Shown here: piece after piece, positions 9,033 to 26,313 of the stretch
Position numbering within the stretch: position 1 is the stretch's first letter
Layout of the letters: every line of letters begins with the position of its first letter
Origin: Sphingobacteriaceae bacterium
Lineage (GTDB): Bacteria > Bacteroidota > Bacteroidia > UBA7662
Direction of reading: 5' to 3'
DNA: 64,000 nt
Assembly: GCA_013824115.1 (NCBI GenBank)
Contig: PNNG01000022.1
Span: forward strand, 14,610-78,609
The notes under the pieces: generated by a model
Databases searched by the model: none
Told to the model about the DNA's origin: nothing
Seen by the model: only the letters and a program-made list of their open reading frames with translations
Position numbers and translations under genes: made by a program

Positions 9033-9129
9033 CAGAGACGCAGTCTCATCACCAGCGCTTCAGCGCATTGCCAGAGGCGCAAGCCTCATTAACAGCGCGA
9101 AGCGCATCACCAAAGGCGAAGCCTCATCC
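9033..9129. repeat. 39-bp tandem repeat, about 2.5 copies, each unit with two short GC hairpins
   Basis: Unit 1 (9033-9071): cagagacgcagtctcatcaccagcgcttcagcgcattgc. Unit 2 (9072-9110): cagaggcgcaagcctcattaacagcgcgaagcgcatcac. Partial third unit: caaaggcgaagcctcatcc. Hairpins are of the types gagac-gca-gtctc and agcgc-ttc/gaa-gcgc. Confidence 0.8.
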
Positions 9130-9794
9130 TAAAATTTCTGTCGGTGCCCAAAAGTCACCACATAAGCCGTAGCCGGACGGGTAGTATTTAATGCCTTTTC
9201 CTCAAACAATCCAATTTCCCAACGGTGGCGCTTGTTTTGATCCCAAGCCAATGAACCACTGATACGCCGGTTTTGCACGCCATTCAAGGCAGGTGAGAGG
9301 GGTTGCCAATATTCGGCTCCCAGATTGGCCGTGAGTTTTTTGGGCAAATCGAAGTTCAAAGTCGCTTTGTGCCGCAAAAAATCGCTGTTGCGGGTGTCGG
9401 CATTGCCTAAGGCCAAGTCGGTAAATTGGTATTGGTAGCGCAGGCGGTAACTTAAGTCAATTTTTTTGTGCAGGCGCTGGCTGTATTTTACATCGGCGAA
9501 AAAGCGGTTGCGCACATCCCAAAAGTAGGTTTGGTTGCGCCACGAAAGCCGGTAGGCTGCGCTTAATTCAAGGCGCTTAACGGGACTGTAAGTAAGGCTT
9601 AAATCGGTCAAAAGTCGGTGAATTTGACTGTAATTCTGGTTGAGTCGCATTTCGGGCGACAATTCGGCTTCCCATTTTTTGTTGATTTTGTATTTGGCAG
9701 TATAGCCCAGCCATGCACCGGCATCGGGTACTTGGGCCGAAATTTTCAATGCAATGAGCAATAGCCAACCAAAAACAAACCAGCCTTTGCTCAT
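9129..9794 (-). CDS. DUF2490-like outer-membrane beta-barrel protein
   Basis: 221 aa with a signal peptide (WLLLIALKISAQ). Alternating beta-strand pattern rich in aromatic/Arg residues. 4-nt overlap with the upstream gene. Confidence 0.55.
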   Translation of the reverse strand: MSKGWFVFGWLLLIALKISAQVPDAGAWLGYTAKYKINKKWEAELSPEMRLNQNYSQIHRLLTDLSLTYSPVKRLELSAAYRLSWRNQTYFWDVRNRFFADVKYSQRLHKKIDLSYRLRYQYQFTDLALGNADTRNSDFLRHKATLNFDLPKKLTANLGAEYWQPLSPALNGVQNRRISGSLAWDQNKRHRWEIGLFEEKALNTTRPATAYVVTFGHRQKF

Positions 9795-10420
9795 CCTTCG
9801 TAATAAAAGATGCGCAATTGCGCCGAATCACGCACAAAATCGAGCTTTTGCACCTGCACCCGGTGGATGGGGAGGCCTGTTTTAGCTCTCAAATCTTCAA
9901 GTAATTCAGCCTCTCGATCCTTGGCTACCAAGGCAATTTGTTCGTAAAAAATCACCTTGCTCACCTCTTTTTTGTACAACCAGGTGCTTTCGAGTAAATA
10001 GGTGGTTACCAACAAAATAGCCGAAATGGCTATTTGTAATTGCCATCCGCCAGTGGCCACGGCCGATAAAACCCCAATGGCTATGCTCAAAAACAAATAG
10101 GTCATGTCTTTGATGGAAATGTCTTCGGTGCGGTAACGCAACATGCTGAATACGGCAAACAAGCCAAAGGCAGCTCCCATCGACAATTCGGCTCCATTTA
10201 AGGCATACGAAATGAGAAAAATGACCAGATTGAAGATGAAGAAGGTAAAAAACAGGTCGCGCGTTTTGTACACGCTGAAATAAACGCCACGAATCAACAG
10301 CCAAACCGTAACCAGATTGATGGCAAAACGGGCAAAAAAATTGGCCGAAAGGGCCTCGGTGATGGCAAAGGAGGTTGAATCGCTGGCAACAAGGTCAAGA
10401 AGCAGGGGAGGCATGGGCAA
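9791..10420 (-). CDS. DUF4956-family multi-pass membrane protein
   Basis: 209 aa, several TM helices. Contains AAFGLFAVFSMLRYRTEDISIKDMTYLF, a motif I associate with DUF4956. Overlaps the VTC gene by 26 nt. Confidence 0.6.
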   Translation of the reverse strand: MPMPPLLLDLVASDSTSFAITEALSANFFARFAINLVTVWLLIRGVYFSVYKTRDLFFTFFIFNLVIFLISYALNGAELSMGAAFGLFAVFSMLRYRTEDISIKDMTYLFLSIAIGVLSAVATGGWQLQIAISAILLVTTYLLESTWLYKKEVSKVIFYEQIALVAKDREAELLEDLRAKTGLPIHRVQVQKLDFVRDSAQLRIFYYEG

Positions 10421-11147
10421 TGGCTAATAATTTGGTAATGGTAGGTTTAAAGTGATTTTGTTTGAGCCCGGGATGGAGCAGCGCCATACCCAAGCAGTAT
10501 TTGCTCACCGATCGGGCACCCCAATGTCGCTGCCGCAGGGCTTCCCACATGGGCGAACTTTGGTGCTTGCCTTGTTTGATTTCCACAATGGCCAAGCCGG
10601 GTAAATCGTAACGTCTTCCTTCCGATTCAAACCACAAAGCGGTATCGAGGGTCACACGTTCGTATTGGTAATGGTGCACCAGGGTAATGCGTTCGTAGCC
10701 TACCCGCAAACTGTGCTCGAGTTCGCTAAACCGATAGGGCGAATGTGTTGCAATGAGATCGGCTACTGCTGCACTGGCAGCTTCACTTCTGTGCCCGCTT
10801 AAGCGCATTTTTTTACTCTTTCCCTCGGCATACCGTGCTTTTACCTCCCAAAAAGCCACATCGCTTAGGGTGTAATGCCGGTGTCGTATCTTGAAGCGGC
10901 GGGTGCGACCGCCATGGTGCGATAAATAGCTGTTCAAATCGGCTGTGTCGAAATAGTCGGTTTGGTAGGGATTCACCTGTGAGCCATTCACCTCTAAAAC
11001 GCGATAAAAGGGCGCCACTACCTCCAAAAGCGTGTTGAGTTGCGAAGTATGCACCGCCAATTTGCGGTCGATGCGCTGCAACAGCTCATTGCCTCCCAAC
11101 TCATGCAGGTAAATAGGCTGATATAGGTCTTGCAGCAGGGCTGTCAT
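10395..11147 (-). CDS. VTC-domain (triphosphate-tunnel, polyphosphate-polymerase-type) protein
   Basis: 250 aa. RIDRKLAV followed by YQTDYFDTADLNSYLSHHGGRTRRFKIRHRHY...FWEVKARYAEGKSKKMR matches the pattern of bacterial VTC/CYTH-like domains. Confidence 0.65.
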   Translation of the reverse strand: MTALLQDLYQPIYLHELGGNELLQRIDRKLAVHTSQLNTLLEVVAPFYRVLEVNGSQVNPYQTDYFDTADLNSYLSHHGGRTRRFKIRHRHYTLSDVAFWEVKARYAEGKSKKMRLSGHRSEAASAAVADLIATHSPYRFSELEHSLRVGYERITLVHHYQYERVTLDTALWFESEGRRYDLPGLAIVEIKQGKHQSSPMWEALRQRHWGARSVSKYCLGMALLHPGLKQNHFKPTITKLLAIAHASPAS

Positions 11148-11542
11148 TTGCGAATCACCAAAGTGTCGAGGGTGAGAATTTGCCGCTTTTCGGTGATTTC
11201 GAAAGTGAGTTTCACGGGTTCGCGGGTATTGGTATTGCCAGGGGTTGCCAAACGGTCGGAATAAGCGTACAAGGTATACTTGCCTGGATAGAGGTACTGA
11301 AAACGGTAGGTGCCGTCAAAATGGGTCTCCACATCTTCGCCAAAAGTGGGCTCATCGCCAAAAACCAAAAAAATATCTTCGCGCATGGCCGGATATACGC
11401 TATTGATGTTGGTGAAGGTCGAGTTCCAATCCTCTACCATCACCACACCAGTAACCGTGGCCATGCCGCCTAAACCAGGCTCAGGAGTGCATCCAGCCAA
11501 AACAAACGTCAATGTCGTAAATATGCAAAACAGTATTCTCAT
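11144..11542 (-). CDS. Small lipoprotein, carboxypeptidase-regulatory-like fold
   Basis: 132 aa. Lipobox LAGC. GTYRFQYLYPGKYTLYA resembles CarboxypepD_reg-type domains. Overlaps both neighbours by 4 nt. Confidence 0.5.
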   Translation of the reverse strand: MRILFCIFTTLTFVLAGCTPEPGLGGMATVTGVVMVEDWNSTFTNINSVYPAMREDIFLVFGDEPTFGEDVETHFDGTYRFQYLYPGKYTLYAYSDRLATPGNTNTREPVKLTFEITEKRQILTLDTLVIRK

Positions 11543-13902
11543 TGTTTAACGAAGCGTTTGAATTGAATAAGGCCGTTTTGCTGGGTTTGAACCAAATAAA
11601 TGCCGGCGGGCAACGATTGCACGTCGAGTGGATGTGTGCCTGCAGTAGTTTCGCTGTAAAGCAATTTGCCTTGCAAATCGTAGAGTTTGAATTCGTAACT
11701 GCTTTCAGTGTCACCTGTGCGGATGTTCAACCAATCGCGGGTAGGATTGGGATACAGCAACAAAGCAGCAGGTTTGGCTTTTTCGGCTACTGAGGTAGCA
11801 AAATTGTTGTTGGCTGCAAAGGTGGGCAGGCGGAATTGAAAACTGCCTGTTCCATTCGGAATGCGTGCCCAGGCGGTATCCTGGCGCTGCGCACCAAAAG
11901 TCAATTGATCCAACACATTTTCGAGTGAGTCGCTTAAAACCAGCGATTCACCTAAGGACGAGAGCTTGAATGAAGCATGTAAATTGCCTTGTGCAGTACT
12001 GTCGTCGGCCCACACGATGAGGTAGCCACCCGATGGCAAAATCAAACCACTGGGGAAACGCCATTTGGTTTTGTTGTTAAGGTTATCACTGAGGTACCAG
12101 CCGCTCATGTTTTTAGGCTGGGGACCGTTGTTGTAAAATTCCACCCAATCGTCACGCTCGTTGAACTCATCGCGCGCACCATTGCCGTTGGCGGCTACAA
12201 ATTCGTTGATTACAACCCCGTCTATGGTGGCACTACTTTCCACTACATAGGTGAAAACATCGTGTTCAGCACCCTCAGGCAGGTAACTGGCCGATCGGGC
12301 TGCATTGTTGGCAATGGCCTCTATGTAAAATCTTACCCGGGTGTAAGCCGAAAATCCGGGAATATCGGCTCCATAAACTCCATCGCCAGCCAAACTGTCG
12401 TTGTGGGCACCATCGTCGAACATAGGAACCCGGCTAAACACCCCGGTGATTTGGTTGCTGTAATACAGGTAGAGCTGCTGCATGGCCACCGCACTTCCCA
12501 TTTTTACACGCACTTGCATAGGCTCACCAGGCAGTGGTGCACCCCAGGACTGTTGCTGCTGGTTGAAAATATCCAGCTGCTGAATTACCGGAGCTTGTTG
12601 GGCTACCTCGGCATTGGCCAGCAAATAGTTACGCCTGTTGGTAATAAAGGTTTTGAGTGCAGGTACCCCCGAAGTGTATTGGGTGGTGGTATACAGCTTC
12701 TTGGTGTCGGCTGCAACCAAGCTCGCAATTTGTGCGTTGATGCTGTCGATCAATGGAAAAGCGTAAGTGGGCGTAAATCGATCGTTCAGAATGGTACGGT
12801 AGTGTGCCAAATAGCGCTGACGCCATTCGGGAATGTTGAGCAGCTTATTGAGCAAGGGATAATTGGCGTTGGTCACGTTCTTAAAGGGTGTCCAGCTGGT
12901 GCTGGTAGCCGCGCTGGTAAGAAAAGTGCTGTTGCCATCGTACTCAAATGGAAAAGTACGGCCACTTTCTGGCTCGTAATAAATCATGTAGTCCATTTTG
13001 CCTTTCATCACATAGCTGTCGTCGTCGGCAAAAATGTTCTCGGTGGCCAAAAGCCACAGGGCCCGGTCAACATCAATGTATTTGAGCAGGGTATCGCGAT
13101 TAGCAGCACTGGCCAAACTCAGTTGGTGACATGCCGTGACAAGCTTGCTCCAAGGGTAGTCAATATCGCTCGATTTGAGGCTGTAGTAGGGCTTGTAGCT
13201 GTTGGTATCGGCACCACGATAGTTCATCCCCGCAGTACCATCGCCCCAACCTCCGCCAACACCACTGCCGGTTTCGGGATTGGCACGAAACCGAGCGCCA
13301 TCGTTACTCAAAAACCACTGCTCTAGGAAAACCTTGTCGAGATGCTGCACATTGGGGTAAATTCCCCACGACTGGTCGTTGATTACCAACTTGATAAAGT
13401 TGCCCTTGCCAATGGGGATGTAGCGATTGGCCATGCGGTTGTAAAGTACTTCACGCATAAAAGTGGCGTCTTGATGCGCATTGTTAAATTTGAGATTGCG
13501 GTATCCCAAGAGCGTTTGCGTACTGTCTTTCCAATCGATTTCGATGGCAAACGATTTTTTTTGGGAAGTGCTGATGCCCGTATACGAGGTATTTCCCCTA
13601 AATCGCACGCCTACACTGTCGTAAGCAATCCCTTCGTAAGTGAGTCTCGCAGGGATATTGGTTTCGGAGGCATAGTTGGCCTGCATCAGCGACCAATAAT
13701 TGGTTTGCGGAAATTGCAAACTCACCGTTTTTATATTGGTGGGATTGTAAAAGCCTGTATCGTCCTTTCCACCTTGGTACATCGTACGGCCATCATATGA
13801 AAAGTAATAGCTGGATGGAAGCTGTTGGGCTTGTACGATTTGGGTGGCCAAAAGACCTAAAATGCTCACCAATAGGGGGCGGAGGGTAAAAAAATTCTTC
13901 AT
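11539..13902 (-). CDS. CotH-family protein (atypical kinase fold) with LTD and T9SS C-terminal sorting domain
   Basis: 787 aa with a signal peptide. CotH-like core (…DDDSYVMKGKMDYMIYYEPESGRTFPFEYDGNSTF). LTD (VVINEFVAANGNGARDEFNERDDWVEFYNNGPQPKNMSGWYLSD). CTD (LLLYPNPTRDWLNI…GIYLVQTQQNGLIQFKRFVKQ). Confidence 0.8.
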   Translation of the reverse strand: MKNFFTLRPLLVSILGLLATQIVQAQQLPSSYYFSYDGRTMYQGGKDDTGFYNPTNIKTVSLQFPQTNYWSLMQANYASETNIPARLTYEGIAYDSVGVRFRGNTSYTGISTSQKKSFAIEIDWKDSTQTLLGYRNLKFNNAHQDATFMREVLYNRMANRYIPIGKGNFIKLVINDQSWGIYPNVQHLDKVFLEQWFLSNDGARFRANPETGSGVGGGWGDGTAGMNYRGADTNSYKPYYSLKSSDIDYPWSKLVTACHQLSLASAANRDTLLKYIDVDRALWLLATENIFADDDSYVMKGKMDYMIYYEPESGRTFPFEYDGNSTFLTSAATSTSWTPFKNVTNANYPLLNKLLNIPEWRQRYLAHYRTILNDRFTPTYAFPLIDSINAQIASLVAADTKKLYTTTQYTSGVPALKTFITNRRNYLLANAEVAQQAPVIQQLDIFNQQQQSWGAPLPGEPMQVRVKMGSAVAMQQLYLYYSNQITGVFSRVPMFDDGAHNDSLAGDGVYGADIPGFSAYTRVRFYIEAIANNAARSASYLPEGAEHDVFTYVVESSATIDGVVINEFVAANGNGARDEFNERDDWVEFYNNGPQPKNMSGWYLSDNLNNKTKWRFPSGLILPSGGYLIVWADDSTAQGNLHASFKLSSLGESLVLSDSLENVLDQLTFGAQRQDTAWARIPNGTGSFQFRLPTFAANNNFATSVAEKAKPAALLLYPNPTRDWLNIRTGDTESSYEFKLYDLQGKLLYSETTAGTHPLDVQSLPAGIYLVQTQQNGLIQFKRFVKQ

Positions 13903-13973
13903 TCGAGGCGCTAAAGTCGTTCCGACTGCTAGTGTGAAATTAAGTTTAATTTAATATGAAAAAAACGCAAAGT

Positions 13974-16265
13974 TTACGGAAGGCGCACCCAACGAACCAC
14001 TTCGCGTTGCTGCTTTCCTTGCAAAACCAGTAAATAATGGCCAGATGAGAGCATTTCGGGAAGTTGAGTGGCGCTTTGCTGCGCATCTAAAAGCAGACTA
14101 AAAACTTCACGCCCCTGGGCATCGTAAGCATGCAAGCTTTCAAAACTACCCAAGGGATAGCTAAGCAGGCTGCTTCCGTTGCTCGGATTGGGGTAAACCC
14201 TGCAACTTCCTTTAGATAAACTGCGGCTGGAGGTGGCAAAACCATTGGCCATGCGCGGTGTAGGCTGACCAAAAAGCGTCCAAATCGACCCGCCATCGCC
14301 GCTCCGTCCGTAGGAAACGTCTTCTAATTGGGCACCAAAACTCACGCTGTCGAGCAAGATCGACTGCCCGCCCTGCCATCGGTAAACGCCCACATATTCT
14401 CCTTCTTTGGCCAAGCCAAAGTTGGTGTGTCGTGGTCCACGCGCAGTAAAACTGCTGGCCCAAACCAAATAGTGCCCGTATGGAGCAATGGTGTCGTTGG
14501 GGAAGGTCCACTTGGCCGGATTGCTTGGATTGTCGGTGAGGGTATGGCCATTGAGGAAATACGGTGCATCACTGTGGTTATACAATTCAATCCAATCGCT
14601 GGCTACATTGGCTTCGTCGCGAATGCCACGACTGTTGTCGGCCAGCAATTCATTAATGAACAGCGGACCTCCTTCATTGAGTTGTACCACCAAGGGATTA
14701 CAGGGGCGGAGGCGCTGCTGTTGTGATGCATCGCGCGCCAAAACCTGCACGCCCAAAGCTGCCGATTGGGTGGTAAGGGGCAACCAAGTGCCGTACCATC
14801 CATCGCCTGCTGCGCCGTCGTTGTGCAAGCCATCGTCGTACAAAGCGGTTTGGTTTTGCACGCCATTGAGGGTATAAACTACATGGGCTTGCACCCCGGC
14901 CATCGATTCGTCTTCAATGCGCACCAACACATGCGGTTGTTGACCCACGCGCAACTGGGTAATCCGCGGACGGTGCACTATGGGGGCTACATTCAAATTG
15001 GCGGGAAGGGCTTGCAGGTTGTTTTGACTGCGTTGTTGGAGAAAAGGAAAAATGCCTTTTTTCACGTGTTGAATGGCGTTGGTATGGGTGAACGACTGCT
15101 CAAATTGGCTGTTGGTGAATCCATACGCCATCGATTTGAACGGGTCGGCCAGCGCCGATGGGGTGATGCGGAGCCGCAAATTGTCGGTGGCCGATATAAA
15201 AGCAGGTGTTTGTACGTACTGACTCACCTTGCGGAGGTAAAAATTAAACATGGCCCGGGTTTCGGCATTGGCCATCATTTTTTCATACAAGGGGCGAGGC
15301 TGGTTGGGCTTGAATTGATAGGGCGAAATGGTGGCCCAATCGATGCCCATCCAATCGATGCCCAAGGTATTGTCGGTATCGTAGGGGATGTACTCGAAAC
15401 GTTTGTCACGCTGGTTGTTGTAGAGGTAAAAGTTGTTTTTATTGTAGTAACCATCCCAATGGCCGGCTGTAATGTCGATGGCCAGGTTGAGCAAGTAATC
15501 TTCTACATTCAGCAAGGTATCGAGCGCGCAATGGATCTGGTTGGCTGGCGTTTGGTGCAGCACCCGGATGAATTGGGCCAAATCGCTGTAGTTATCGGCC
15601 GGGGTATTGGTTTTGAGCTCGTAAGGGCGCCTGCCGTTTGACATGAATTTATAGGCATTCGGGTCGTTGGAAATGAATACCAAATCGGCCGGAAACAAAC
15701 ATTTGTACAAATTTCCGTGCTGGTTCCCGTAGCGGGTTTGCACAAAATCTTCGTTTACCACCTCCACATTCATGTACAAACCGCGGTATTGGCCATTGAT
15801 GTAAAGTTCGGTATGACCAATGCGTGAGGCCACGGTATTGAGTCCACGAGCTATATCGGCATACACCTTATTTCGCGAAATGCTCAAATCGTTGTAGCCA
15901 CTTATCAGGTTGAAGTCCTTGTATCCTTCATAACGCTGGCCCTGCACAAAGGTATTCACCGAAATGCGGAAGGATTTTTTAGCGGCACTTCGTGAAAAAT
16001 TGCCCCGCAAACGAATGCCAACGAGCGCAATAGAGTCACGACGCGGACCTCGAATAAATACCATAGAGGCCGGGTATTCGTGTTCGGTATACCAATTGGC
16101 TTGTGCCAACATGTGGTTGAGGCTATCGGGACTCATAAACACATTGATGCGGCTTACCGACAAATCGTCGTAAACAAATCCAGCGGCTGGAAAGCTCGAT
16201 TGGGACAGGCCGAAAAAGGGCAAAAGGGAAAAAAGGAAAGCAAAAAAGCGGACGCGCATCTCCAA
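13974..16265 (-). CDS. CotH-family protein (atypical kinase fold) with LTD and T9SS C-terminal sorting domain
   Basis: 763 aa with a signal peptide. CotH-like GHWDGYYNKNNFYLYNNQRDKRFEYIPYDTDNTLG. LTD (LFINELLADNSRGIRDEANVASDWIELYNHSDAPYFLNGHTLTD). CTD (CRVYPNPSNGSSLL…GHYLLVLQGKQQREVVRWVRLP). Confidence 0.8.
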   Translation of the reverse strand: MEMRVRFFAFLFSLLPFFGLSQSSFPAAGFVYDDLSVSRINVFMSPDSLNHMLAQANWYTEHEYPASMVFIRGPRRDSIALVGIRLRGNFSRSAAKKSFRISVNTFVQGQRYEGYKDFNLISGYNDLSISRNKVYADIARGLNTVASRIGHTELYINGQYRGLYMNVEVVNEDFVQTRYGNQHGNLYKCLFPADLVFISNDPNAYKFMSNGRRPYELKTNTPADNYSDLAQFIRVLHQTPANQIHCALDTLLNVEDYLLNLAIDITAGHWDGYYNKNNFYLYNNQRDKRFEYIPYDTDNTLGIDWMGIDWATISPYQFKPNQPRPLYEKMMANAETRAMFNFYLRKVSQYVQTPAFISATDNLRLRITPSALADPFKSMAYGFTNSQFEQSFTHTNAIQHVKKGIFPFLQQRSQNNLQALPANLNVAPIVHRPRITQLRVGQQPHVLVRIEDESMAGVQAHVVYTLNGVQNQTALYDDGLHNDGAAGDGWYGTWLPLTTQSAALGVQVLARDASQQQRLRPCNPLVVQLNEGGPLFINELLADNSRGIRDEANVASDWIELYNHSDAPYFLNGHTLTDNPSNPAKWTFPNDTIAPYGHYLVWASSFTARGPRHTNFGLAKEGEYVGVYRWQGGQSILLDSVSFGAQLEDVSYGRSGDGGSIWTLFGQPTPRMANGFATSSRSLSKGSCRVYPNPSNGSSLLSYPLGSFESLHAYDAQGREVFSLLLDAQQSATQLPEMLSSGHYLLVLQGKQQREVVRWVRLP

Positions 16266-16683
16266 ATTTAGTAAATCACGGTCAATGGATTGACATGAGA
16301 TCTATAATTTGATTGGTTTGTCGGAAAGTGAAACTCCCCATGTGGTTACCATAGAACGCGGAAAACGCCGATTGAGCCGATTTTTGCGGATCTAATGCTG
16401 CCTCTATAAAGGGTAACCTTTTATCATCAAACCAGGAATACACAGTTGCTGATGATTTTTGCCGCTTTAGTCAAAAATCGCCTAACATCCGTGCGAATCC
16501 GCTAAATCAGCTTCATTGGCGTTCCGACTTTACCGCACTACCTAACTCATTGTTAATGAACAAGTCTATCATCCAAATGGCGTAGTCCCCAGCTTGCTTA
16601 ATATTTCAAACTCTGCCTAATTGAATGCTGATATACAACGAAGAGAGTGCTTCAACTCCAACTTCTAACGCTTAGCAACACCA

Positions 16684-18240
16684 TTACTTTTGAATAAGCA
16701 GCCGGTGTTGACTTTCTTGCTGATTTTGATAGGTGATTTTTACAAAATACAGCCCGTTGCTTAATCCCTGTAATTCGAGTTTGAAGCCATCGGCATTGGG
16801 ATGCTGGACCATCATTTTGGCTCCTTTGGAATTGAAAACAGTGAAGGTTGCCATAGGCACATTACTCTTTATTGAAACGAAGTCTTGAGCAGGCTGAGGG
16901 TACAGGATGGTTTGAAGATCGCCTCGTGATTCAACGGAAGTGGTGTTGCCAATTTGAATCGCTTTTTGCACACTATTAACGCACCCGTTGGGCGCGATAC
17001 TAGTAATGCTAACTCGCCCAATGCTATCATTTCCCCAACTGACTAGAGCCGAATCATTATTGGAGTTTACAATAGTGCCTCCTAGAACCATCCATGTGTT
17101 GGTACTTGCTTGAGCAAATTGTTCTGCCCTGTAAATTTCGGATGAATTTCTTGCTACAAAGGCAGCACCTTCAATTTGTCCTGTTGTTTGAATAGGAGTA
17201 ACATTGATATTGTATTGTTTGATGGTATCGCATGCATTTAAGCCAGGAATGGTATCAAAAACCGTGGTATCACTTGCGAAAAAGCGTCCATCTGGCAAGG
17301 TAACCAAACCGCAGCCCGAAAAAGACTGTGTAACGTACAAGTTACAAATGGCATTCGCGGTTACCAAAACAGGCAAAGAAATACGCGATTCTCCTACTTT
17401 ATTTCCTTGCCTGAACTCTTCAGCAAGAACCGATATCCAGACATTTTGTTGCTGTGAGGGTGTGAAACGTATCAAGCCTGTTGCTGGTTGAATGCTGGTT
17501 GAACCCGCCACAGCAAAAAACGGATTAGATCCCGTTAATGGCGCATTGTAGTTGCTTGTTGTGGTGAGGCTGTTTTTGTTTGATACTAAAGAATATACCA
17601 CGCTGTCACCATCACTTTCTGGGCCAAACAATCGAAACCCAACGGGATTGTTCACGCAGAACACAGGCATTTGGCTGATATTGAATTGAGGACTACTGTT
17701 GCCAGCCATTGAATTGTGTGTTAAATGAGCCTGTAAGAATATATCTGAGTTTGTACCTGAAGTATTTATATTGTCAACAGTCACAATGCAACAAAGTCCG
17801 TTCACGGCAGCATTACCTCCATAAGTCATCCTCCAATTGTCACAGTTTGATGAAGCTACGTTTGGCAGCGTGATGGTATCAAGCCAAGTATAGTTAACGA
17901 AGCCAAATCTACCAACAGTTCCACCACAGTTTGCTGAAACTATACCGCAGCGGAATCCGATGGTATCCAAAGAATAATGTGGCAGTGCAGCGGCAAAACT
18001 CTGATTGCATGTGTTAGCAATCAAAATGTTTACGGGATTAAGGACTAAAAAGGGGCTGCTATTTGACGAAGCCTCACAACTTCTAACCAACTGAAGTTTT
18101 ACGATATATTGACGGCCACCAATATGACTATACGTAAGTGTCCCCCCTGCAATGTGATTGGCTTGTGCAGTAAATGCAGAAATGATCAAAGCTAAAAAGC
18201 TCAAAACGCTTAATGCCTTTTGGATGGCAGACTGTTTCAT
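16684..18240 (-). CDS. Secreted Cys-rich protein with T9SS C-terminal sorting domain
   Basis: The track ORF starts at 18291. I prefer the ATG at 18240 (MKQSAIQKALSVLSFLALIISAFTAQA signal peptide). C-terminal ILYPQPAQDFVSIKSN…GLYFVKITYQNQQESQHRLLIQK. Confidence 0.65.
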   Translation of the reverse strand: MKQSAIQKALSVLSFLALIISAFTAQANHIAGGTLTYSHIGGRQYIVKLQLVRSCEASSNSSPFLVLNPVNILIANTCNQSFAAALPHYSLDTIGFRCGIVSANCGGTVGRFGFVNYTWLDTITLPNVASSNCDNWRMTYGGNAAVNGLCCIVTVDNINTSGTNSDIFLQAHLTHNSMAGNSSPQFNISQMPVFCVNNPVGFRLFGPESDGDSVVYSLVSNKNSLTTTSNYNAPLTGSNPFFAVAGSTSIQPATGLIRFTPSQQQNVWISVLAEEFRQGNKVGESRISLPVLVTANAICNLYVTQSFSGCGLVTLPDGRFFASDTTVFDTIPGLNACDTIKQYNINVTPIQTTGQIEGAAFVARNSSEIYRAEQFAQASTNTWMVLGGTIVNSNNDSALVSWGNDSIGRVSITSIAPNGCVNSVQKAIQIGNTTSVESRGDLQTILYPQPAQDFVSIKSNVPMATFTVFNSKGAKMMVQHPNADGFKLELQGLSNGLYFVKITYQNQQESQHRLLIQK

Positions 18241-18336
18241 GAGGTTAGTTTGTTCAGATATAACAAATATCCAATACTTGAAACATTTCATTCATTTTTC
18301 TTCCTGCAAACGTGCATTCGATGATAGAATGCAAGG

Positions 18337-21246
18337 CTAATCAAGCACCCACTCATCCACAAAAATATACGCGGGCTCACCTGCACTCAAATGCCAGGCA
18401 GGCAAAGGTCCCAAAGGTTCAGCCACCACACGCAAAGCTTTGAAGCTTTTTGCTTCTTTCAACTGCAGCAAAAGGGTTTGGGTTTGCACGGTATAATCGT
18501 CAGCTGGAACGCTGTTGTTCACCGTGCCCAGCAATTCGAAACGTTTGCCGTCGGTAGAACCGTAAAAGCTTACCCGGATGGGATACACAATCCAAGCACG
18601 GGTGTCTTGCAGGCAACGCAGGCCGAGTTGCGATACCCGAGTAGGCTGATCGAACTGCAGTTCGGCTTTCAAGGGCTGTCCAAAAAAACCCAACCAATCG
18701 CCCTTACGCCAGTTTTCGCTGCCGAGCAAGCCATCTATCAGGCTCGAAGCCCCGCTGGCACCATACTGGGGATGGGTAGGGGTGTTGAGCTGCACTTGGC
18801 GGTCGGTAGGCAAAACGTAATAAGCAGCGCTGATTTCGGCGCTGGCCTGTTTGCCGGCCAAATCGAAAGCCTGGGCGCGTACCAAACTGCTTTGTTTGAG
18901 TTCTATGGACTGGTTTTGCCAATTTTGCTGCAGTAGCGAAGCGGTACTGTCGGTACTCGCAATTACCAACACATTGGAATCCGTGGGGTGGAAGGCCCGT
19001 ACGGTCTGACTGCCTTTGAACACCCGGCCCCCTGCTTCAATCACCGGATTTACCACCAGGCGGTTTTCGGCGGCGTTGGGCCAAGCAGCAGCTGGCAGCG
19101 AAGTGCTGGCGTTGGTAGTGAGGGTGTACTGCCATTCACCACCTTGCAACAACTCGGCATACGACCAGCGTGTGAGATCTTTTTTCGCTTTGCCATTGGC
19201 GGTGAGCGCAACGGCGTAGATACTTCCTTTGGTGACCTTGCTGTTGATTTGCAGCGATTTACCGTTTTCAAATTTGATGCGTATTTGCTGCAAATGCGGC
19301 GCAAAACTCACAAAATGCGGATCTCCGGGCGCCACCTGGTACAAACCCATGCTGCTGAGCACGTACCAAGCACTCATTTGCCCGCAATCTTCGTTGCCAA
19401 TGAGGCCATCGGGGGCGTTGGTGTAAAAATGGCGGAGAATGCTGTCGACCAACACCTGGGTTTTGGCAGGCTTGTTCAAGGCCAGGTACAAAAAGGCCAT
19501 GTGGTGACTGGGCTCGTTGCCATGAGCATACTGACCAATCAAGCCGGTGATATCGGCCTGCTGCCTGCCGGTGGTGGCCGTGGGTGCAGCAAAAAGGGCA
19601 TCGAGCTGTTTTTCGAAGGCGGCAGGACCGCCATGCATCGCCATCAAGCCAGCCACATCGTGCGGCACAAAAAAGGCATATTGCCAGGCGTTTCCTTCTG
19701 TAAAGTGGTTATTCACCTCAAACGGATCGAAGGGCGACAACCAACCGCCATTTTGTTTGGGACGGAAAAAGCCAGTGGAAGGGTCAAAGAGGTTTTTCCA
19801 GTATTGCGCACGGGTATAGAAGTCGGCGGCCAGCTCGGTATCGCCCAGTTTTTCGGCCATGCGGGCAATGCACCAGTCGTCGTAAGCGTATTCAAGCTGT
19901 TTTGATACGTTTTCGTGCTCATCGTCGGCAGTGATCTGCCGGTTTTGCTGGTAGGCCGCCAAGCCCAGGTGTTGCAGCCGGGCGCTGTGCACCATGGCAG
20001 GCAGCAGCTCGCGGGCAGGCAGGCTGTCGATGTTCTTCAGCACGGCATCGGCAATCACACTCACGCTGTGGTAGCCAATCATGCAGTCGGTTTCGTTGCC
20101 GGCCAACTCCCAAACGGGTAACCGACCGCCTTGCTCGTACATCTTCAAAAAGGTGCGCAGGAAGTCGCGGGTGCGATTTTGGTCAATCAGCGTAAGCAGC
20201 GGGTGGTTGGCCCTAAAGGTATCCCACAACGAAAAAATGCTGTAGTGCTGGTAGCCCACTGCCGTGTGAATGCGGTTGTTCATGCCGCGGTAGCGACCAT
20301 CTACATCGCTCACCACATTGGGTTGCAGCTGCACATGGTAGAGGGCGGTGTAGAAATTCACCAGCTTGGTGGTATCGGGGTCGCTGACTTCAATCTTGGC
20401 CAGGGCCTGCTGCCACTGGGCTTTGGCTTCGCGCCGCACCCGGTCGAAATCCCAGTGTGGCACCTCTGCCTTCAGGTTTTTTTCGGCCCCGGCGGCATCG
20501 GTGAACGAAAGGCCTGTTTTAATGAGCAATGGTTTGCCTTTGGGCAGGCTGAAAGCCAGACTGATTTGTTTTCCGTCGGGACTCATGCGATGGATGAAGG
20601 GCGACGAGAACTGCATAAACGCATACACATGCTGCTCGGTAGCCCAGGCCTTGCTCACGCGGCGAATGCGCAAAGTCGTGTGGTTTACTACTTCAATGGC
20701 ATGATCGAGCAGCTCGTCGCGGTGGGTTTGGTCAATGACCACAAAAGCGCGCTGATCGGGGAAATGGTAGCGCTGCATGCCCACGCGGGTGCTGCTGGTT
20801 AGCTCCACACGAATGCCATTTTGCAGCTTCACTTGGTAATAGCCGGGGCTGGCCTTTTCGTCGGCATGTTTAAAGGCGGTACGGTAGGCAATGGGCTTAA
20901 ACATACCGCTTGCCAAAACGGGCATGGTATGGATGTCGCCATAATCGCTCACCCCCGTGCCGCTCAAATGGGTGTGGCTGAAACCGTATATGAGGCTGTC
21001 GCTGTAATGGTAGCCGCTGCAACCATCCCAACTGCCATCAATGCGCGTATCGGGCGACAACTGCACCAAACCAAAAGGCACCGTAGCCCCCGGGTAAGTG
21101 TGGCCATGACCGCCAGTGCCTATGAAGGGATTAACGTAGCGGGTGAAGTCGGGGGTTTGGGCAAAAGCAGGTGCAAAGGTTGAAGCAGCCACCAACAGTA
21201 AAACAAGCTGCCGCCAAGGCGCCGACACAAAGCGAATGTGATTCAT
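18337..21246 (-). CDS. GH92 alpha-mannosidase with C-terminal discoidin (F5/8 type C)-like domain
   Basis: NPFIGTGGHGHTYPGATVPFGLVQLSPDT is the classic GH92 N-terminus. Start moved to the ATG at 21246 (MNHIRFVSAPWRQLVLLLVAASTFAPAFAQ). The track start at 21354 adds a non-signal extension. Confidence 0.85.
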   Translation of the reverse strand: MNHIRFVSAPWRQLVLLLVAASTFAPAFAQTPDFTRYVNPFIGTGGHGHTYPGATVPFGLVQLSPDTRIDGSWDGCSGYHYSDSLIYGFSHTHLSGTGVSDYGDIHTMPVLASGMFKPIAYRTAFKHADEKASPGYYQVKLQNGIRVELTSSTRVGMQRYHFPDQRAFVVIDQTHRDELLDHAIEVVNHTTLRIRRVSKAWATEQHVYAFMQFSSPFIHRMSPDGKQISLAFSLPKGKPLLIKTGLSFTDAAGAEKNLKAEVPHWDFDRVRREAKAQWQQALAKIEVSDPDTTKLVNFYTALYHVQLQPNVVSDVDGRYRGMNNRIHTAVGYQHYSIFSLWDTFRANHPLLTLIDQNRTRDFLRTFLKMYEQGGRLPVWELAGNETDCMIGYHSVSVIADAVLKNIDSLPARELLPAMVHSARLQHLGLAAYQQNRQITADDEHENVSKQLEYAYDDWCIARMAEKLGDTELAADFYTRAQYWKNLFDPSTGFFRPKQNGGWLSPFDPFEVNNHFTEGNAWQYAFFVPHDVAGLMAMHGGPAAFEKQLDALFAAPTATTGRQQADITGLIGQYAHGNEPSHHMAFLYLALNKPAKTQVLVDSILRHFYTNAPDGLIGNEDCGQMSAWYVLSSMGLYQVAPGDPHFVSFAPHLQQIRIKFENGKSLQINSKVTKGSIYAVALTANGKAKKDLTRWSYAELLQGGEWQYTLTTNASTSLPAAAWPNAAENRLVVNPVIEAGGRVFKGSQTVRAFHPTDSNVLVIASTDSTASLLQQNWQNQSIELKQSSLVRAQAFDLAGKQASAEISAAYYVLPTDRQVQLNTPTHPQYGASGASSLIDGLLGSENWRKGDWLGFFGQPLKAELQFDQPTRVSQLGLRCLQDTRAWIVYPIRVSFYGSTDGKRFELLGTVNNSVPADDYTVQTQTLLLQLKEAKSFKALRVVAEPLGPLPAWHLSAGEPAYIFVDEWVLD

Positions 21247-21376
21247 AACAGGGTAGGGCAAAGGAGGTGGTAAAATACGTGATTTGCTGAGTTTTTTGCT
21301 CTGGCCCAAACAGGTCAATAAGGTGTAAAGTGTTTTTTCTTTTGTATGATGCATTTAATGCTTAGCATTGTCGCTT

Positions 21377-23865: not shown

Positions 23866-26313
23866 TCAGCGTCCCAACACCCTCATATGCCACCACTTCC
23901 CGCTCCCCAACTCCCCCTTCACCACCACCTTCCTCCTCGGTCTTACATCCAAAAAATTGAAATCCAGGGGCGTTTCGGCATCCAGATACAGCTGGCTTAC
24001 CGCTCGGCGGGTGCGAACGGTTAGTTGGTCGCCTTGTTGAACGACACGCACCTTGGCGGCCGGCCAGTGCAACTCCTTGGGCGACAGGGGCGATAAAAAG
24101 CGGCCCGTAGGCGCGCCTTGCACTTGTACAAACAATACGGCCTTGCCGCTTTGCAGTTGTTTTTGCCAGCGATTAGGTAGGGGCAGGGCAGCGGTATGCC
24201 TGCCCGCCGCAAGCCGAATATTGAATCGCCTTCCGCCTTTGCGTAACCAACCGCCGGGTTTCCAAAGTTCGACCAGCAGGGTGGCCGTACTGTCGGTGGG
24301 CAAGTCGCCCAAAACGAGTACTTCAAGTCCGTATGAACTGCTGTGCAACACCGGTAAAATGGGCGCGTACAAATGCTGCAGGGCGTAATAACCGGCTTTG
24401 GGCCGACCGTAATAATCTACCACACTCCACGAAATGCCCGGCCAGGCATCGTTGAACTGCCAGGGCAGGGTTCCCATGCATTTTTCTTGCTGGCGGTGGG
24501 CTTCAATGGCTATTTGCAGGGCGCGGACTTGCAACAACTGGGTGGCATAGGCGTAAGCAGCCAGGCTATCGAACTTCCCGAAATCGCGCTCCAGGTAGGT
24601 GTTCAGGGTCTCAAAGCCGGTGGGGTGCTTTTGCTTGGTACGCAAGGCCTGACTTTGCAGGCCGGGACGATCTTCTCCCGTCATCTGCTGCAAACTGCGC
24701 CAAACGGGCAAGGCCTGCATGCCGTATTCCGATACAAAACGGCCGGTTTTTCGGCGGTATGTTTCGAGCGAATCACGTCCCCACCATACGCCCCAATAAT
24801 GCACATCGCCTTCCTGGTATGCCCGTTCGCGTCCCCAACCGTTGAGGGGCGACGAGTGGGAATAGGAGCGGTCGGGGTCGTATTGCCGCACCAAAGCCAG
24901 CAGCTCACGCTGAAACAGCTGTTGGTAGGCTTGTAATACAGCCAGACTGTCAGCAGGCGAGTGTCCGAGCTGTTTTTGCCAGCCCCAATTGAACCAGCCT
25001 TCGTAGTTTTCGTTATTGCCGCACCACAGGGCCAGGCTGGTGTAAGGGCGCAAACGCAATAACTGTTCGGTGGCTTCGCGCCGCACCGAGGCCACAAAAG
25101 CCGAATCGCCGGGGTACATGGCGCAGGCAAAGGCAAAATCTTGCCATACGAGCAAACCCAGCTGGTCGGCGCTTTCCATCAAAGCATCGCTGGCATAATC
25201 GCCTCCGCCCCAAACGCGGATGAGGTTCATGTGCGCCTTTTGTGCCAGCTGCAGCAGGTTGGAGTCGGGGAGGGCTAGGCTATCGTTAACCAAACGTGAA
25301 CGGGGAATGTAGTTGATGCCTTTGATAAAGAGGGGACGGTTATTCACCAGAATATAAAACGAGCGCCCAAAGTCGTCGGCTTCTTGCACCAGCTCTACCG
25401 TGCGGATACCCACCTTGTTTTCATATCGCTGCACCACCACATCGCCTTGTAGCAAATAGGCTTCCAAGCGGTGCAAAAAGGCTTCGCCCGAACCATTGGG
25501 CCACCAAAGTTTGGGGTGGGGGATGTATAAATCGACTTCGAGCAAGCTGTCGGTCGGTTCCAGATCGATGGCCTTGGTCACATAGCGTTGGCCATCGCCC
25601 AGCAACAACACCAATTGTCCGCCCGGCTGCGCCCCGTGCACCACCGTACTCACCCTCAACACGGCCACTGTATCCTCTAGCCGCATGGTACGGAAATGCC
25701 AGTGCTTGAGTTCGGTCTGCTGCTTCGTTTCCACCAGGCGCACTTCGCCGGTGATGCCACCAGCCAGCAACTTCGGGCCCCAGTCCCAACCAAAATGCCA
25801 GGCGGGCTTGCGCACAAAAACACGGTGGCTTTCGGGCAAGGCTTGTGGATATTGGCTGCGCAGCGAATCGTTGGTGGCTTGGATGGGCCGAATTTCAACT
25901 TGCAGCAAATTGCTTCCTGCACGGGTTGCTTTGCTGAGCAAAAATTGGTGGCTGTGGAAGGCGTTGCCCGTTCGGCCGAGCAATTGTCCGTTGAGGTAGA
26001 TGCGAGCGTCGGTGTCGATGCGATCGAAATGCAGGGCCAGCCCGCTATCGGCTAACTGATCGGCCGTCAGTTCAAAGCGGGAGTGGTACCACCACGACAG
26101 GGTGTCGGCCCATTGCCAGCGGGCTTCCAAGGCGGGATGGGTGTAGGGCGGTAGTTTGCCTGCCAGGGTGAGGCTTTCGTAGATGGTGCCGGGTACTTGG
26201 CCGTTGAAGGTATCGGGTAGGGAAGGACTGCTGAGCTGCCAATCCTTGATAATGGTTTGGGCGTCGGTTGTTTGGAACAAACCGAAGAGGAGGCAGCAGA
26301 GCAGGAGCTTCAT
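23866..26313 (-). CDS. GH2 beta-mannosidase
   Basis: 815 aa with a signal peptide (MKLLLCCLLFGLFQTTDAQ). GH2 beta-mannosidase-like regions (…NMIRVWGGGDYASD…, …WCGNNENYEGW…, …VSEYGMQALP…). Confidence 0.8.
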   Translation of the reverse strand: MKLLLCCLLFGLFQTTDAQTIIKDWQLSSPSLPDTFNGQVPGTIYESLTLAGKLPPYTHPALEARWQWADTLSWWYHSRFELTADQLADSGLALHFDRIDTDARIYLNGQLLGRTGNAFHSHQFLLSKATRAGSNLLQVEIRPIQATNDSLRSQYPQALPESHRVFVRKPAWHFGWDWGPKLLAGGITGEVRLVETKQQTELKHWHFRTMRLEDTVAVLRVSTVVHGAQPGGQLVLLLGDGQRYVTKAIDLEPTDSLLEVDLYIPHPKLWWPNGSGEAFLHRLEAYLLQGDVVVQRYENKVGIRTVELVQEADDFGRSFYILVNNRPLFIKGINYIPRSRLVNDSLALPDSNLLQLAQKAHMNLIRVWGGGDYASDALMESADQLGLLVWQDFAFACAMYPGDSAFVASVRREATEQLLRLRPYTSLALWCGNNENYEGWFNWGWQKQLGHSPADSLAVLQAYQQLFQRELLALVRQYDPDRSYSHSSPLNGWGRERAYQEGDVHYWGVWWGRDSLETYRRKTGRFVSEYGMQALPVWRSLQQMTGEDRPGLQSQALRTKQKHPTGFETLNTYLERDFGKFDSLAAYAYATQLLQVRALQIAIEAHRQQEKCMGTLPWQFNDAWPGISWSVVDYYGRPKAGYYALQHLYAPILPVLHSSSYGLEVLVLGDLPTDSTATLLVELWKPGGWLRKGGRRFNIRLAAGRHTAALPLPNRWQKQLQSGKAVLFVQVQGAPTGRFLSPLSPKELHWPAAKVRVVQQGDQLTVRTRRAVSQLYLDAETPLDFNFLDVRPRRKVVVKGELGSGKWWHMRVLGR

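Follow-up and report, generated by a model that had tools for sequence, protein, structure and literature searches.

A Bacteroidota Gene Cluster Joining a Predicted Vtc4-Type Tunnel Enzyme to DUF4956, an Outer-Membrane Barrel, and Secreted CotH Proteins

A 64-kb stretch of DNA (hereafter the window) from a metagenome-assembled genome labeled Sphingobacteriaceae, a soil or freshwater member of the Bacteroidota, carries six co-directional genes. They encode two CotH-family proteins, a small lipoprotein, a VTC-domain protein, a DUF4956 membrane protein, and a DUF2490 outer-membrane barrel. The six-gene unit is almost certainly real and not a product of chance: its conserved core is VTC–DUF4956, usually accompanied by DUF2490 and the lipoprotein, with CotH as a frequent accessory. 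The cluster is a Bacteroidota, pel-independent version of a cassette that has been noted but not characterized. Our reading, held tentatively and at somewhat less than even confidence, is that it encodes an envelope module built around a Vtc4-type polymerase, in which polyphosphate (polyP) would be delivered to the envelope or the cell surface, where CotH acts.

Results

The cluster lies entirely on the reverse strand, and its parts, as open reading frames (ORFs) with lengths in amino acids (aa), are as follows.

13974-16265, (-): CotH-A, ORF of 763 aa (761 aa from the ATG at 16259)
13903-13973, (-): spacer between the CotH genes, 71 bp, AT-rich
11539-13902, (-): CotH-B, ORF of 787 aa, the second CotH paralogue
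11144-11542, (-): small lipoprotein, ORF of 132 aa, with 4-nt overlaps with both CotH-B and VTC
10395-11147, (-): VTC protein, ORF of 250 aa
9791-10420, (-): DUF4956 protein, ORF of 209 aa, overlapping the VTC gene by 20-26 nt
9129-9794, (-): DUF2490 barrel, ORF of 221 aa, with a 4-nt overlap with DUF4956

A first-pass annotation, made from the sequence alone, had described six co-directional genes running from 16265 down to 9129, and the ORF coordinates reproduce that layout exactly; in order from CotH-A, the junctions are a 71-bp gap followed by overlaps of 4, 4, 26, and 4 nt. The co-directional genes, the overlaps of 4-26 nt, and the single 71-bp gap would fit an operon. CotH-A more likely starts at the ATG at 16259 (MRVRFF...). 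The ATG at 10414 is the more likely start of DUF4956, because it agrees with the start of a 92%-identical homologue, and the overlap with the VTC gene would then be 20 nt. A consensus scan of the 13903-13973 spacer detects no terminator-like hairpin, and sigma-70 promoter and terminator consensus scans give counts no higher than the shuffled expectation, Bacteroidota promoters lying outside the coverage of the scan. TAnnTTTG is the Bacteroidota -7 promoter motif. It is matched by TAAATTTG at window positions 16263-16270, which ends 3 nt ahead of the probable CotH-A ATG; the match may be due to chance, because it is too near the ATG for a normal leader. No other copies of the five families occur in the 64-kb window, and the VTC protein is 100% identical to NCBI C0424_05960.

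Pfam and NCBIfam profile searches recovered every family that had been named for the six products, namely CotH, VTC, DUF4956, DUF2490, LTD, and the T9SS (type IX secretion system) sorting domains. The topology proposed at the outset holds as well, placing the tunnel enzyme in the cytoplasm, the multi-pass protein in the inner membrane, and the barrel in the outer membrane, with the kinases exported.

Conservation of the cluster was examined by scanning one genome per GTDB species, which yielded 410 confirmed VTC relatives; the best 80 loci were analyzed. Almost all of these belong to the Bacteroidota, where they span several orders, and 45 of the 80 have full flanks. The query was a 12-sequence subset of the VTC family; the 21-sequence alignment had no conserved stretch. 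Neighbors were called by tblastn and home-built profiles, with the following outcome.

DUF4956 directly after VTC on the same strand: 80/80 loci, 45/45 with full flanks
DUF2490: 66/80 loci, 39/45 with full flanks
Lipoprotein: 50/80 loci, 31/45 with full flanks
CotH domain within 10 kb: 31/80 loci, 20/45 with full flanks

These counts bear out the expectation that the genes are co-conserved across the Bacteroidota. DUF2490, where present, mostly stands immediately after DUF4956. The coupling of CotH to VTC is frequent: among the 31 CotH-bearing loci of the 80, the nearest CotH gene is co-directional in 30, and its median distance is about 1 kb. The coupling that the first-pass annotation proposed is not obligatory, given that more than half of the loci lack CotH within this 10-kb range and that it is divergent in locus L022. 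Gene orders vary: CotH can lie upstream of the lipoprotein gene, downstream of DUF2490, 5-6 kb away in a rearranged cluster, or, as in L022, on the divergent strand. Linkage that outlasts such rearrangement suggests functional coupling rather than inherited synteny alone. No formal P value is attached to it, because the loci are phylogenetically non-independent.

The CotH counts come from a rebuilt profile. A first iterative profile was dropped because it drifted onto any protein with a T9SS sorting domain (e.g., Kelch-repeat proteins), and 107 matches were discarded after a Pfam check. The replacement uses domain envelopes only, with model coverage of at least 60% and then at least 50%, and takes in the missed LTD-CotH class as a seed.

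Several individual loci are informative. The cultured Emticicia oligotrophica DSM 17448 has the order CotH–157 aa–VTC–DUF4956–DUF2490–DUF2490. Two contigs labeled Chloroflexota (L072 and L079) carry VTC-DUF4956 without DUF2490 or the lipoprotein, L079 with CotH as well. The absence of these two genes from L072, L079, and the Gram-positive cassettes described below fits outer-membrane-specific roles for their products, in a small sample. In L022:4667-9995, from a metagenome-assembled genome labeled Chitinophaga pinensis, two CotH genes stand on the opposite strand, divergent from lipoprotein-VTC-DUF4956-DUF2490. This arrangement indicates that the two halves can be separate transcription units.

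The VTC product matches Pfam PF09359 over profile positions 2-235 of 235 (5e-23, 82.2 bits against a cut-off of 23), and its translation contains no signal peptide. PDB sequence searches with the protein or its profile gave only a weak match to Vtc2 (E 0.17), which was not usable, so fold comparison was used instead. The AlphaFold model has a pLDDT (predicted local distance difference test) score of 91.3. In a Foldseek search of the PDB, yeast VTC subunits (Vtc4, Vtc3, or Vtc2) take all of the top 13 places (E 3e-13 to 3e-10, TM-score 0.60-0.67), with Vtc4 as the best; CYTH triphosphatases and class IV cyclases come next, at E 1e-8 to 1e-5. The alignment of 21 VTC sequences has 26 invariant columns, mostly basic and acidic residues that alternate along strands, as would be expected of a tunnel lining. 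The invariant or, where marked, near-invariant residues include R25, K29 (at least 90%), R84, K86, R88, R90, E101, K103, K113, R115, R153, R164 (at least 90%), E189, K191, and S215-K216. In agreement with the tunnel domain called in the first-pass annotation, the tunnel residues are conserved, and the fold is nearest that of Vtc4.

Besides the triphosphate-binding Y359, R361, and R373, the catalytic residues listed for Vtc4 are K200, R264, R266, K281, E426 (Mn2+), and S457-K458, and the Lys of the last pair is Ile or Leu in the inactive Vtc2 and Vtc3 (bioRxiv 10.1101/2023.01.27.525886). For K200 to S457-K458, the candidate counterparts in the window protein, all invariant or nearly so, are K29, R88, R90, K103, E189, and S215-K216, as assigned by motif order and spacing rather than by residue-level alignment. 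Y151, R153, and R164 align to Vtc4 Y359, R361, and R373 by way of the weak Vtc2 alignment and Vtc4 numbering; R153 is invariant, and Y151 and R164 are conserved in most of the 21 sequences. The window protein consists of the VTC domain only, the SPX domain of eukaryotic VTC and its fused three-helix membrane domain, which forms a pentameric channel, both being absent. The family comprises about 11,400 clusters at 50% identity, and its best 150 members are likewise stand-alone proteins of 239-329 aa. As modeled, the product is a cytoplasmic, stand-alone, Vtc4-type triphosphate-tunnel enzyme, and it is probably an active polyP polymerase.

DUF4956, the invariable partner of VTC in the 80 loci, is assigned by Pfam PF16316 (2e-50, 171.3 bits against a cut-off of 30.6). 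Its model (pLDDT 75) shows an N-terminal amphipathic helix, five transmembrane helices, and a C-terminal beta-alpha-beta-beta domain. No PDB fold matches it at E<=1e-3; there are weak ACT-domain-like matches, confined to residues ~150-209. In the aligned sample, DUF4956 homologues are 52-92% identical to the window protein; the corresponding range for VTC is 28-41% when its two closest homologues are set aside. The homologues share an invariant GAAFGLFAVF...RYRTExxSxKD core, in which the positive-inside rule places the RYRTExxSxKD loop on the cytoplasmic side, and R31 and R44, both in the first transmembrane helix, are invariant as well. CDD assigned a Streptococcus DUF4956 homologue to the MgtC family (bioRxiv 10.1101/2024.04.20.589940). 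This relationship is not supported here: none of 26 DUF4956 proteins has an MgtC Pfam match at E<=10, and there is no significant PDB fold match.

The barrel was called only DUF2490-like in the first-pass annotation. The family was right and the qualifier understated the match, as the product is a true member of Pfam PF10677 (1e-20, 74.5 bits against a cut-off of 29.8). The translation has a signal peptide and a C-terminal Phe, and DUF2490 has been read as an outer-membrane barrel (bioRxiv 10.64898/2026.07.29.741452). Basic residues outnumber acidic ones by 13 to 2 at the conserved charged positions. Compared with the PDB, the DUF2490 profile finds NanC, a channel for acidic sugars, best (E 0.004), followed by OmpG (0.03) and KdgM (0.1), and 3 of 28 DUF2490 members match Pfam KdgM (best E 0.003).

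The 132-aa product has an LAGC lipobox and no family in the Pfam/NCBIfam searches. Across 29 homologues its Cys18 and a GxGG motif are invariant, and 23-24 of them give weak CarboxypepD_reg or fn3_3 matches; the profile matches the transthyretin-like repeats of NOMO2 at 8e-9. The product belongs to a conserved lipoprotein family with a transthyretin/carboxypeptidase-regulatory-like beta-sandwich. At 41 of the 80 loci (among them L002:840-1421, L003:4036-4509, and L010:9497-9970), a further co-directional gene is inserted between those for the lipoprotein and VTC, directly upstream of the latter. It encodes a secreted, Lys- and Glu-rich protein of 142-210 aa that has YD/MORN-like beta-hairpin repeats and matches no Pfam family. 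The window does not have this gene; there, the lipoprotein gene overlaps VTC directly.

Both large proteins carry the CotH domain (PF08757, cut-off 23.8 bits), CotH-A at 3e-50 and 171.9 bits and CotH-B at 4e-41 and 141.9 bits. Each also has an LTD domain (7e-12 in CotH-A, 8e-18 in CotH-B) and a choice-of-anchor X domain. CotH-A consists of a signal peptide, CotH at 84-394, choice-of-anchor X at 475-499, LTD at 532-633, and a T9SS type A sorting domain at 690-760; in CotH-B the signal peptide is followed by CotH at 99-427, choice-of-anchor X at 492-515, LTD at 558-669, and the T9SS sorting domain at 716-787. The sorting domain of CotH-B is recognized by TIGR04183 (52.3 bits against a cut-off of 23) and by Pfam (46 bits). 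That of CotH-A passes TIGR04183 (28.6 bits against 23) and falls under the Pfam cut-off (18.8 against 27). The earlier CotH, LTD, and T9SS calls on the two proteins are thus borne out, for the CotH-A sorting domain by TIGR04183 only.

The catalytic Asp of B. subtilis CotH is D228, and its metal-binding Asp is D251 (PMC7821199). The window proteins match the B. cereus CotH structure 5JD9 at E 4e-19 (CotH-A) and 2e-7 (CotH-B). An alignment to 5JD9 and 34 CotH domains shows that CotH-A retains the nucleotide-binding Lys of KKSF, the catalytic Asp of HWDG, the Asn of NNF, and the metal-binding Asp of PYD. CotH-B retains the Lys of KKSF, the catalytic Asp of DDDS, and the metal-binding Asp of EYD, and the catalytic-loop Asn is replaced by Asp (MDY). 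This second type forms a subclass, with MDY and with EYD in place of WD or PYD, found at window 11539-13902, L001:7246-9609, L022:7017-9383, and L005:14783-17122; a canonical paralogue of the CotH-A type accompanies it in L001, L022, and the window.

An N-terminal export signal is present in 36 of 37 cluster-linked CotHs, which fall into two classes. The first comprises proteins of 744-788 aa, nine of which match a C-terminal T9SS profile built from the two window domains. The second comprises lipoprotein forms of ~460-540 aa with acidic residues after the Cys. Shorter CotHs of 456-471 aa follow DUF2490 at L034:12110-13480, L042:11608-13002, L076:12115-13509, L080:6497-7876, L032:6984-8399, and L040:12165-13580; they have Asp or Glu within a few residues after the Cys. 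The short forms thus bear a signal similar to the one that directs lipoproteins to the surface in Bacteroidota, and there appear to be two routes by which CotH gets there.

Discussion

The association of CotH, a "polyphosphate polymerase," and DUF4956 has been described as a set of accessory genes in Gram-positive pel operons (Whitfield et al., bioRxiv 10.1101/768473). The first-pass annotation knew of no experimentally assigned function for this gene combination; the triad itself had already been described in that setting. Overall, the earlier interpretation is reasonable but supported in part only. In Streptococcus intermedius, the authors of a later study built AlphaFold models, deemed the polyP cytoplasmic, and found no triad outside pel operons (bioRxiv 10.1101/2024.04.20.589940). 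A transcriptome table for Bacteroides thetaiotaomicron lists DUF4956 and DUF2490 side by side, as BT3498-99, and does not remark on them. Our literature searches returned nothing on a Bacteroidota form of the cassette or its occurrence apart from pel, on the added DUF2490 and lipoprotein genes, on two CotH export routes, or on an export hypothesis, and no papers on bacterial VTC proteins, on extracellular polyphosphate in Bacteroidetes, or on CotH using polyphosphate.

The Gram-positive pel cassette has three families in common with the window cluster: its CotH is secreted and has the catalytic residues, its VTC-like enzyme is cytoplasmic, and its multi-pass membrane protein ends in an ACT-like domain. 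Unlike that cassette, the window cluster stands alone, with no pel genes and no DUF4832 hydrolase, adds the DUF2490 barrel and the lipoprotein, and has duplicated CotHs equipped with LTD, choice-of-anchor X, and T9SS sorting domains. Bacillus CotH (5JD9/5JDA) belongs to the same atypical kinase fold family and shares the Lys, the catalytic Asp, and the metal-binding Asp. However, it acts in the mother cell, where ATP is available, whereas the window proteins are exported to the surface, are about twice as long with their extra domains, include in CotH-B an Asp for the catalytic-loop Asn, and come from an organism that does not form spores.

The closest functional parallel is the yeast VTC complex (Vtc4/Vtc3/Vtc1). 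The window enzyme shares its triphosphate-tunnel fold and Pfam VTC domain (best E 3e-13, TM-score ~0.65) and has conserved candidate equivalents of its basic tunnel residues, metal-binding Glu, and active-type Ser-Lys pair, and in both systems the enzyme is tied to a membrane protein. The window cluster differs in that its enzyme is a stand-alone protein of 250 aa with neither an SPX sensor nor a fused three-helix transmembrane domain, in that the membrane partner is encoded separately as DUF4956, whose five helices and small alpha/beta domain at the C-terminus are unrelated to the yeast part, and in that the setting is a diderm bacterial envelope to which an outer-membrane barrel and a lipoprotein have been added. 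By inference from this analogy, the cluster would work like the eukaryotic VTC synthase-translocase without belonging to that complex. A looser analogy, from established knowledge, is with the secretion of Pel, alginate, poly-N-acetylglucosamine, and cellulose, whose operons combine a polymerase at the cytoplasmic face with a partner in the inner membrane, a lipoprotein in the periplasm, and a barrel in the outer membrane. In contrast to those synthase-dependent systems, the cluster has no homologous parts, a presumed inorganic polymer, and a small barrel (221 aa), and there is no tetratricopeptide-repeat scaffold or cyclic di-GMP receptor family among the Pfam matches of its six products. KdgM and NanC, small outer-membrane channels that carry acidic solutes, resemble the barrel in size (~215-220 aa); NanC is the best PDB match of the DUF2490 profile, whose conserved residues are mainly basic. 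The similarity is marginal (E 0.004), and DUF2490 is a Pfam family of its own.

These comparisons allow us to propose a sequence of steps. The VTC enzyme, judging from its fold and residues, would take the gamma-phosphate of ATP in the cytoplasm and extend a polyP chain through its tunnel. DUF4956, its obligate, translationally coupled partner, would take the chain at the inner membrane and hand it to the periplasm, a step suggested by the strict gene coupling, the arginines of the first transmembrane helix, the basic cytoplasmic loop, and the analogy with the yeast synthase-channel, whose channel is lined by rings of Lys and Arg (bioRxiv 10.1101/2023.01.27.525886). That DUF4956 moves the polymer across the inner membrane is a possibility we rate just short of even. 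The barrel and the beta-sandwich lipoprotein would then handle the polymer at the outer membrane, as suggested by their co-conservation, the basic conserved positions of the barrel, and its marginal similarity to NanC and KdgM; passage of the polymer through DUF2490 itself seems doubtful. In the least certain step, the CotH proteins, brought to the surface by the T9SS or as lipoproteins, would act on or with the exported polyP or on surface targets, and use of polyP by CotH is, from the sequences, somewhere between unlikely and improbable. Taken in its fullest form, as a third bacterial route to polyP beside PPK1 and PPK2, with export through DUF4956, the lipoprotein, and DUF2490 and with polyP as phosphoryl donor or substrate of CotH, the proposal is improbable.

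Several observations weigh against the envelope-module reading. In S. intermedius, deletion of SIR_1592-1594 left Pel and aggregation unaffected in assays confined to rich medium (bioRxiv 10.1101/2024.04.20.589940). The first-pass annotation drew a parallel with the eukaryotic channel; the tie between VTC and a membrane protein holds, but DUF4956 is not homologous to the VTC channel domain and has no solved relative, so a channel role would follow from context only. Apart from those of Y359, R361, and R373, the catalytic equivalences with Vtc4 were drawn mostly by motif order, and the searched literature contains no experiments on bacterial VTC-domain proteins. The 150 best VTC representatives and the 120 best DUF4956 matches include no fusion of VTC with DUF4956 or CotH. 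The similarity of DUF2490 to NanC (E 0.004) is marginal, and a 2026 preprint reports a buried salt-bridge network in models of many DUF2490 barrels (bioRxiv 10.64898/2026.07.29.741452), which could plug the lumen instead of lining a pore. Most of the 80 loci (49) lack a CotH gene in the surrounding 10 kb. At L083:10001-11838 (also L084), the gene directly after VTC encodes a secreted CotH-like protein of 348 aa with a signal peptide and PYDFD (Pfam CotH 5e-7), and no DUF4956 was called in the L083 locus within 10 kb upstream and ~4 kb downstream, a departure from the strict VTC-DUF4956 pairing seen elsewhere.

One rival reading is a membrane-anchored system that faces inward. The polyP made by VTC would then remain cytoplasmic or lie against the inside of the membrane, DUF4956 would be only an anchor or a regulator that senses a ligand through its ACT-like C-terminus, and DUF2490, the lipoprotein, and CotH would perform a separate task, such as uptake of phosphate or polyanions or surface phosphorylation with another donor. 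The S. intermedius authors favored cytoplasmic polyP, which bacteria tolerate, as is known from PPK1 (PMC10657179). The weak fold matches of the DUF4956 C-terminus are to ACT domains, which are ligand-binding regulatory modules, and DUF2490 is possibly an uptake porin, as NanC and KdgM are uptake channels. We regard an inward-facing system as unlikely: it leaves unexplained why a cytoplasmic enzyme should be conserved together with, and translationally coupled to, a barrel of the outer membrane and a lipoprotein of the periplasm, why DUF4956 is conserved far above the VTC enzyme, and why arginines inside its first transmembrane helix are invariant. It is decidedly unlikely that the cluster serves surface modification, with CotH phosphorylating an exopolysaccharide or T9SS cargo and VTC-DUF4956 supplying or regulating the phosphate economy without polymer export; the module would then be accessory to matrix production, as the pel-linked Gram-positive cassettes may be. 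The triad does occur within pel operons of Streptococcus, Clostridia, and Bifidobacterium, the LTD and anchor domains of both window CotHs are typical of surface proteins, and several loci have tandem T9SS Kelch-repeat proteins or lie beside porU/porV/porP. However, the window flanks and the checked recurrent neighbors contain no glycosyltransferase, pel, or polysaccharide synthesis gene, deletion of the triad left Pel unchanged in S. intermedius, the core has no nearby CotH in most loci, and an extracellular kinase would still require a phosphoryl donor outside the cell.

In a further reading, VTC is not a polymerase. It might hydrolyze tripolyphosphate or nucleoside triphosphates, as most triphosphate-tunnel enzymes of bacteria do, or act as a cyclase, and would regulate DUF4956, which would transport ions or small molecules. 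In favor of this reading, the next-best structural matches are to CYTH/TTM triphosphatases and class IV cyclases (E 1e-8 to 1e-5), and CDD assigned the Streptococcus homologue to MgtC. But the 13 top structural matches, all VTC subunits, are about five orders of magnitude better than the CYTH enzymes, the Pfam VTC model is matched end to end, the putative Vtc4-type Ser-Lys motif is invariant, and none of the 26 DUF4956 proteins matches MgtC in Pfam even at E<=10. We consider a non-polymerase very improbable. Fortuitous juxtaposition of unrelated genes could draw on the absence of CotH from more than half of the loci and on the divergent CotH pair in L022. It is effectively refuted by the neighborhood analysis, in which VTC-DUF4956 recurs in 80/80 loci, DUF2490 in 66/80, and the lipoprotein in 50/80, and in which CotH, across several gene orders, is co-directional in 30/31 and lies a median of ~1 kb away; moreover, the triad recurs in Firmicutes and Actinobacteria, and the window genes overlap by 4-26 nt.

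Bacterial polyP has been attributed to PPK1 and PPK2 (PMC10657179), and VTC relatives are present in at least 410 species-level genomes. If polyP is made and exported as the envelope-module reading proposes, bacteria would have an equivalent of the eukaryotic synthase-channel in which the membrane component is of unrelated origin. The cluster would also be a source of envelope or extracellular polyanion relevant to the biofilm matrix, metal binding, and phosphorus cycling by Bacteroidota, and would give a rationale for the many secreted CotHs found outside spores, including those in pel operons. Should CotH use the exported polymer, phosphorylation outside the cell without extracellular ATP would be explained. 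Even if export is wrong, the analysis shows that CotH–VTC–DUF4956 forms a module in its own right and is more than an appendage of pel operons. The proposal is testable, given that the cultured E. oligotrophica DSM 17448 has the cluster and B. thetaiotaomicron has BT3498-99.

Neighboring Genes

A 535-aa protein with a T9SS sorting domain and no other recognizable domain is encoded at 16684-18291, 418 bp upstream of CotH-A on the same strand. It was rejected as a member of the module, since none of the 80 loci has a relative of it nearby. Of the other flanking genes, those for GH92, DUF1801/YdeI, and a GMC oxidoreductase were likewise judged unrelated to the module. Genes of the GH92 alpha-mannosidase family and the GH2 family lie further upstream, at 18337-21354 and 23866-26313, and appear unrelated.

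The recurrent neighbor families that were checked comprise two-component regulators, a sulfate permease, the T9SS proteins PorU/PorV/PorP, and housekeeping genes; there are no pel genes among them. Tandem arrays of two to five ORFs follow VTC-DUF4956 at L010:11882-18973, L018:11873-17770, L039:5462-7876, and L064:3955-10192. The two array ORFs checked in L010 are Kelch-repeat proteins with T9SS sorting domains, and the array proteins might be substrates or merely co-located T9SS cargo. At about 13 loci the cluster adjoins porV, a gene for a PorU-like C25 peptidase, and porP/sprF, mostly in convergent orientation (e.g., L002:3395-4633, L002:4686-8639, and L002:8877-9830). This adjacency may reflect lineage-specific synteny or a link to the T9SS. 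Two-component regulators also recur nearby, as at L081:6203-6952, L004:9020-10048, and L006:3812-7210, and may regulate the cluster. They include a LytTR response regulator beside CotH in Emticicia, a LytS-type histidine kinase, and hybrid Reg_prop/Y_Y_Y sensors.

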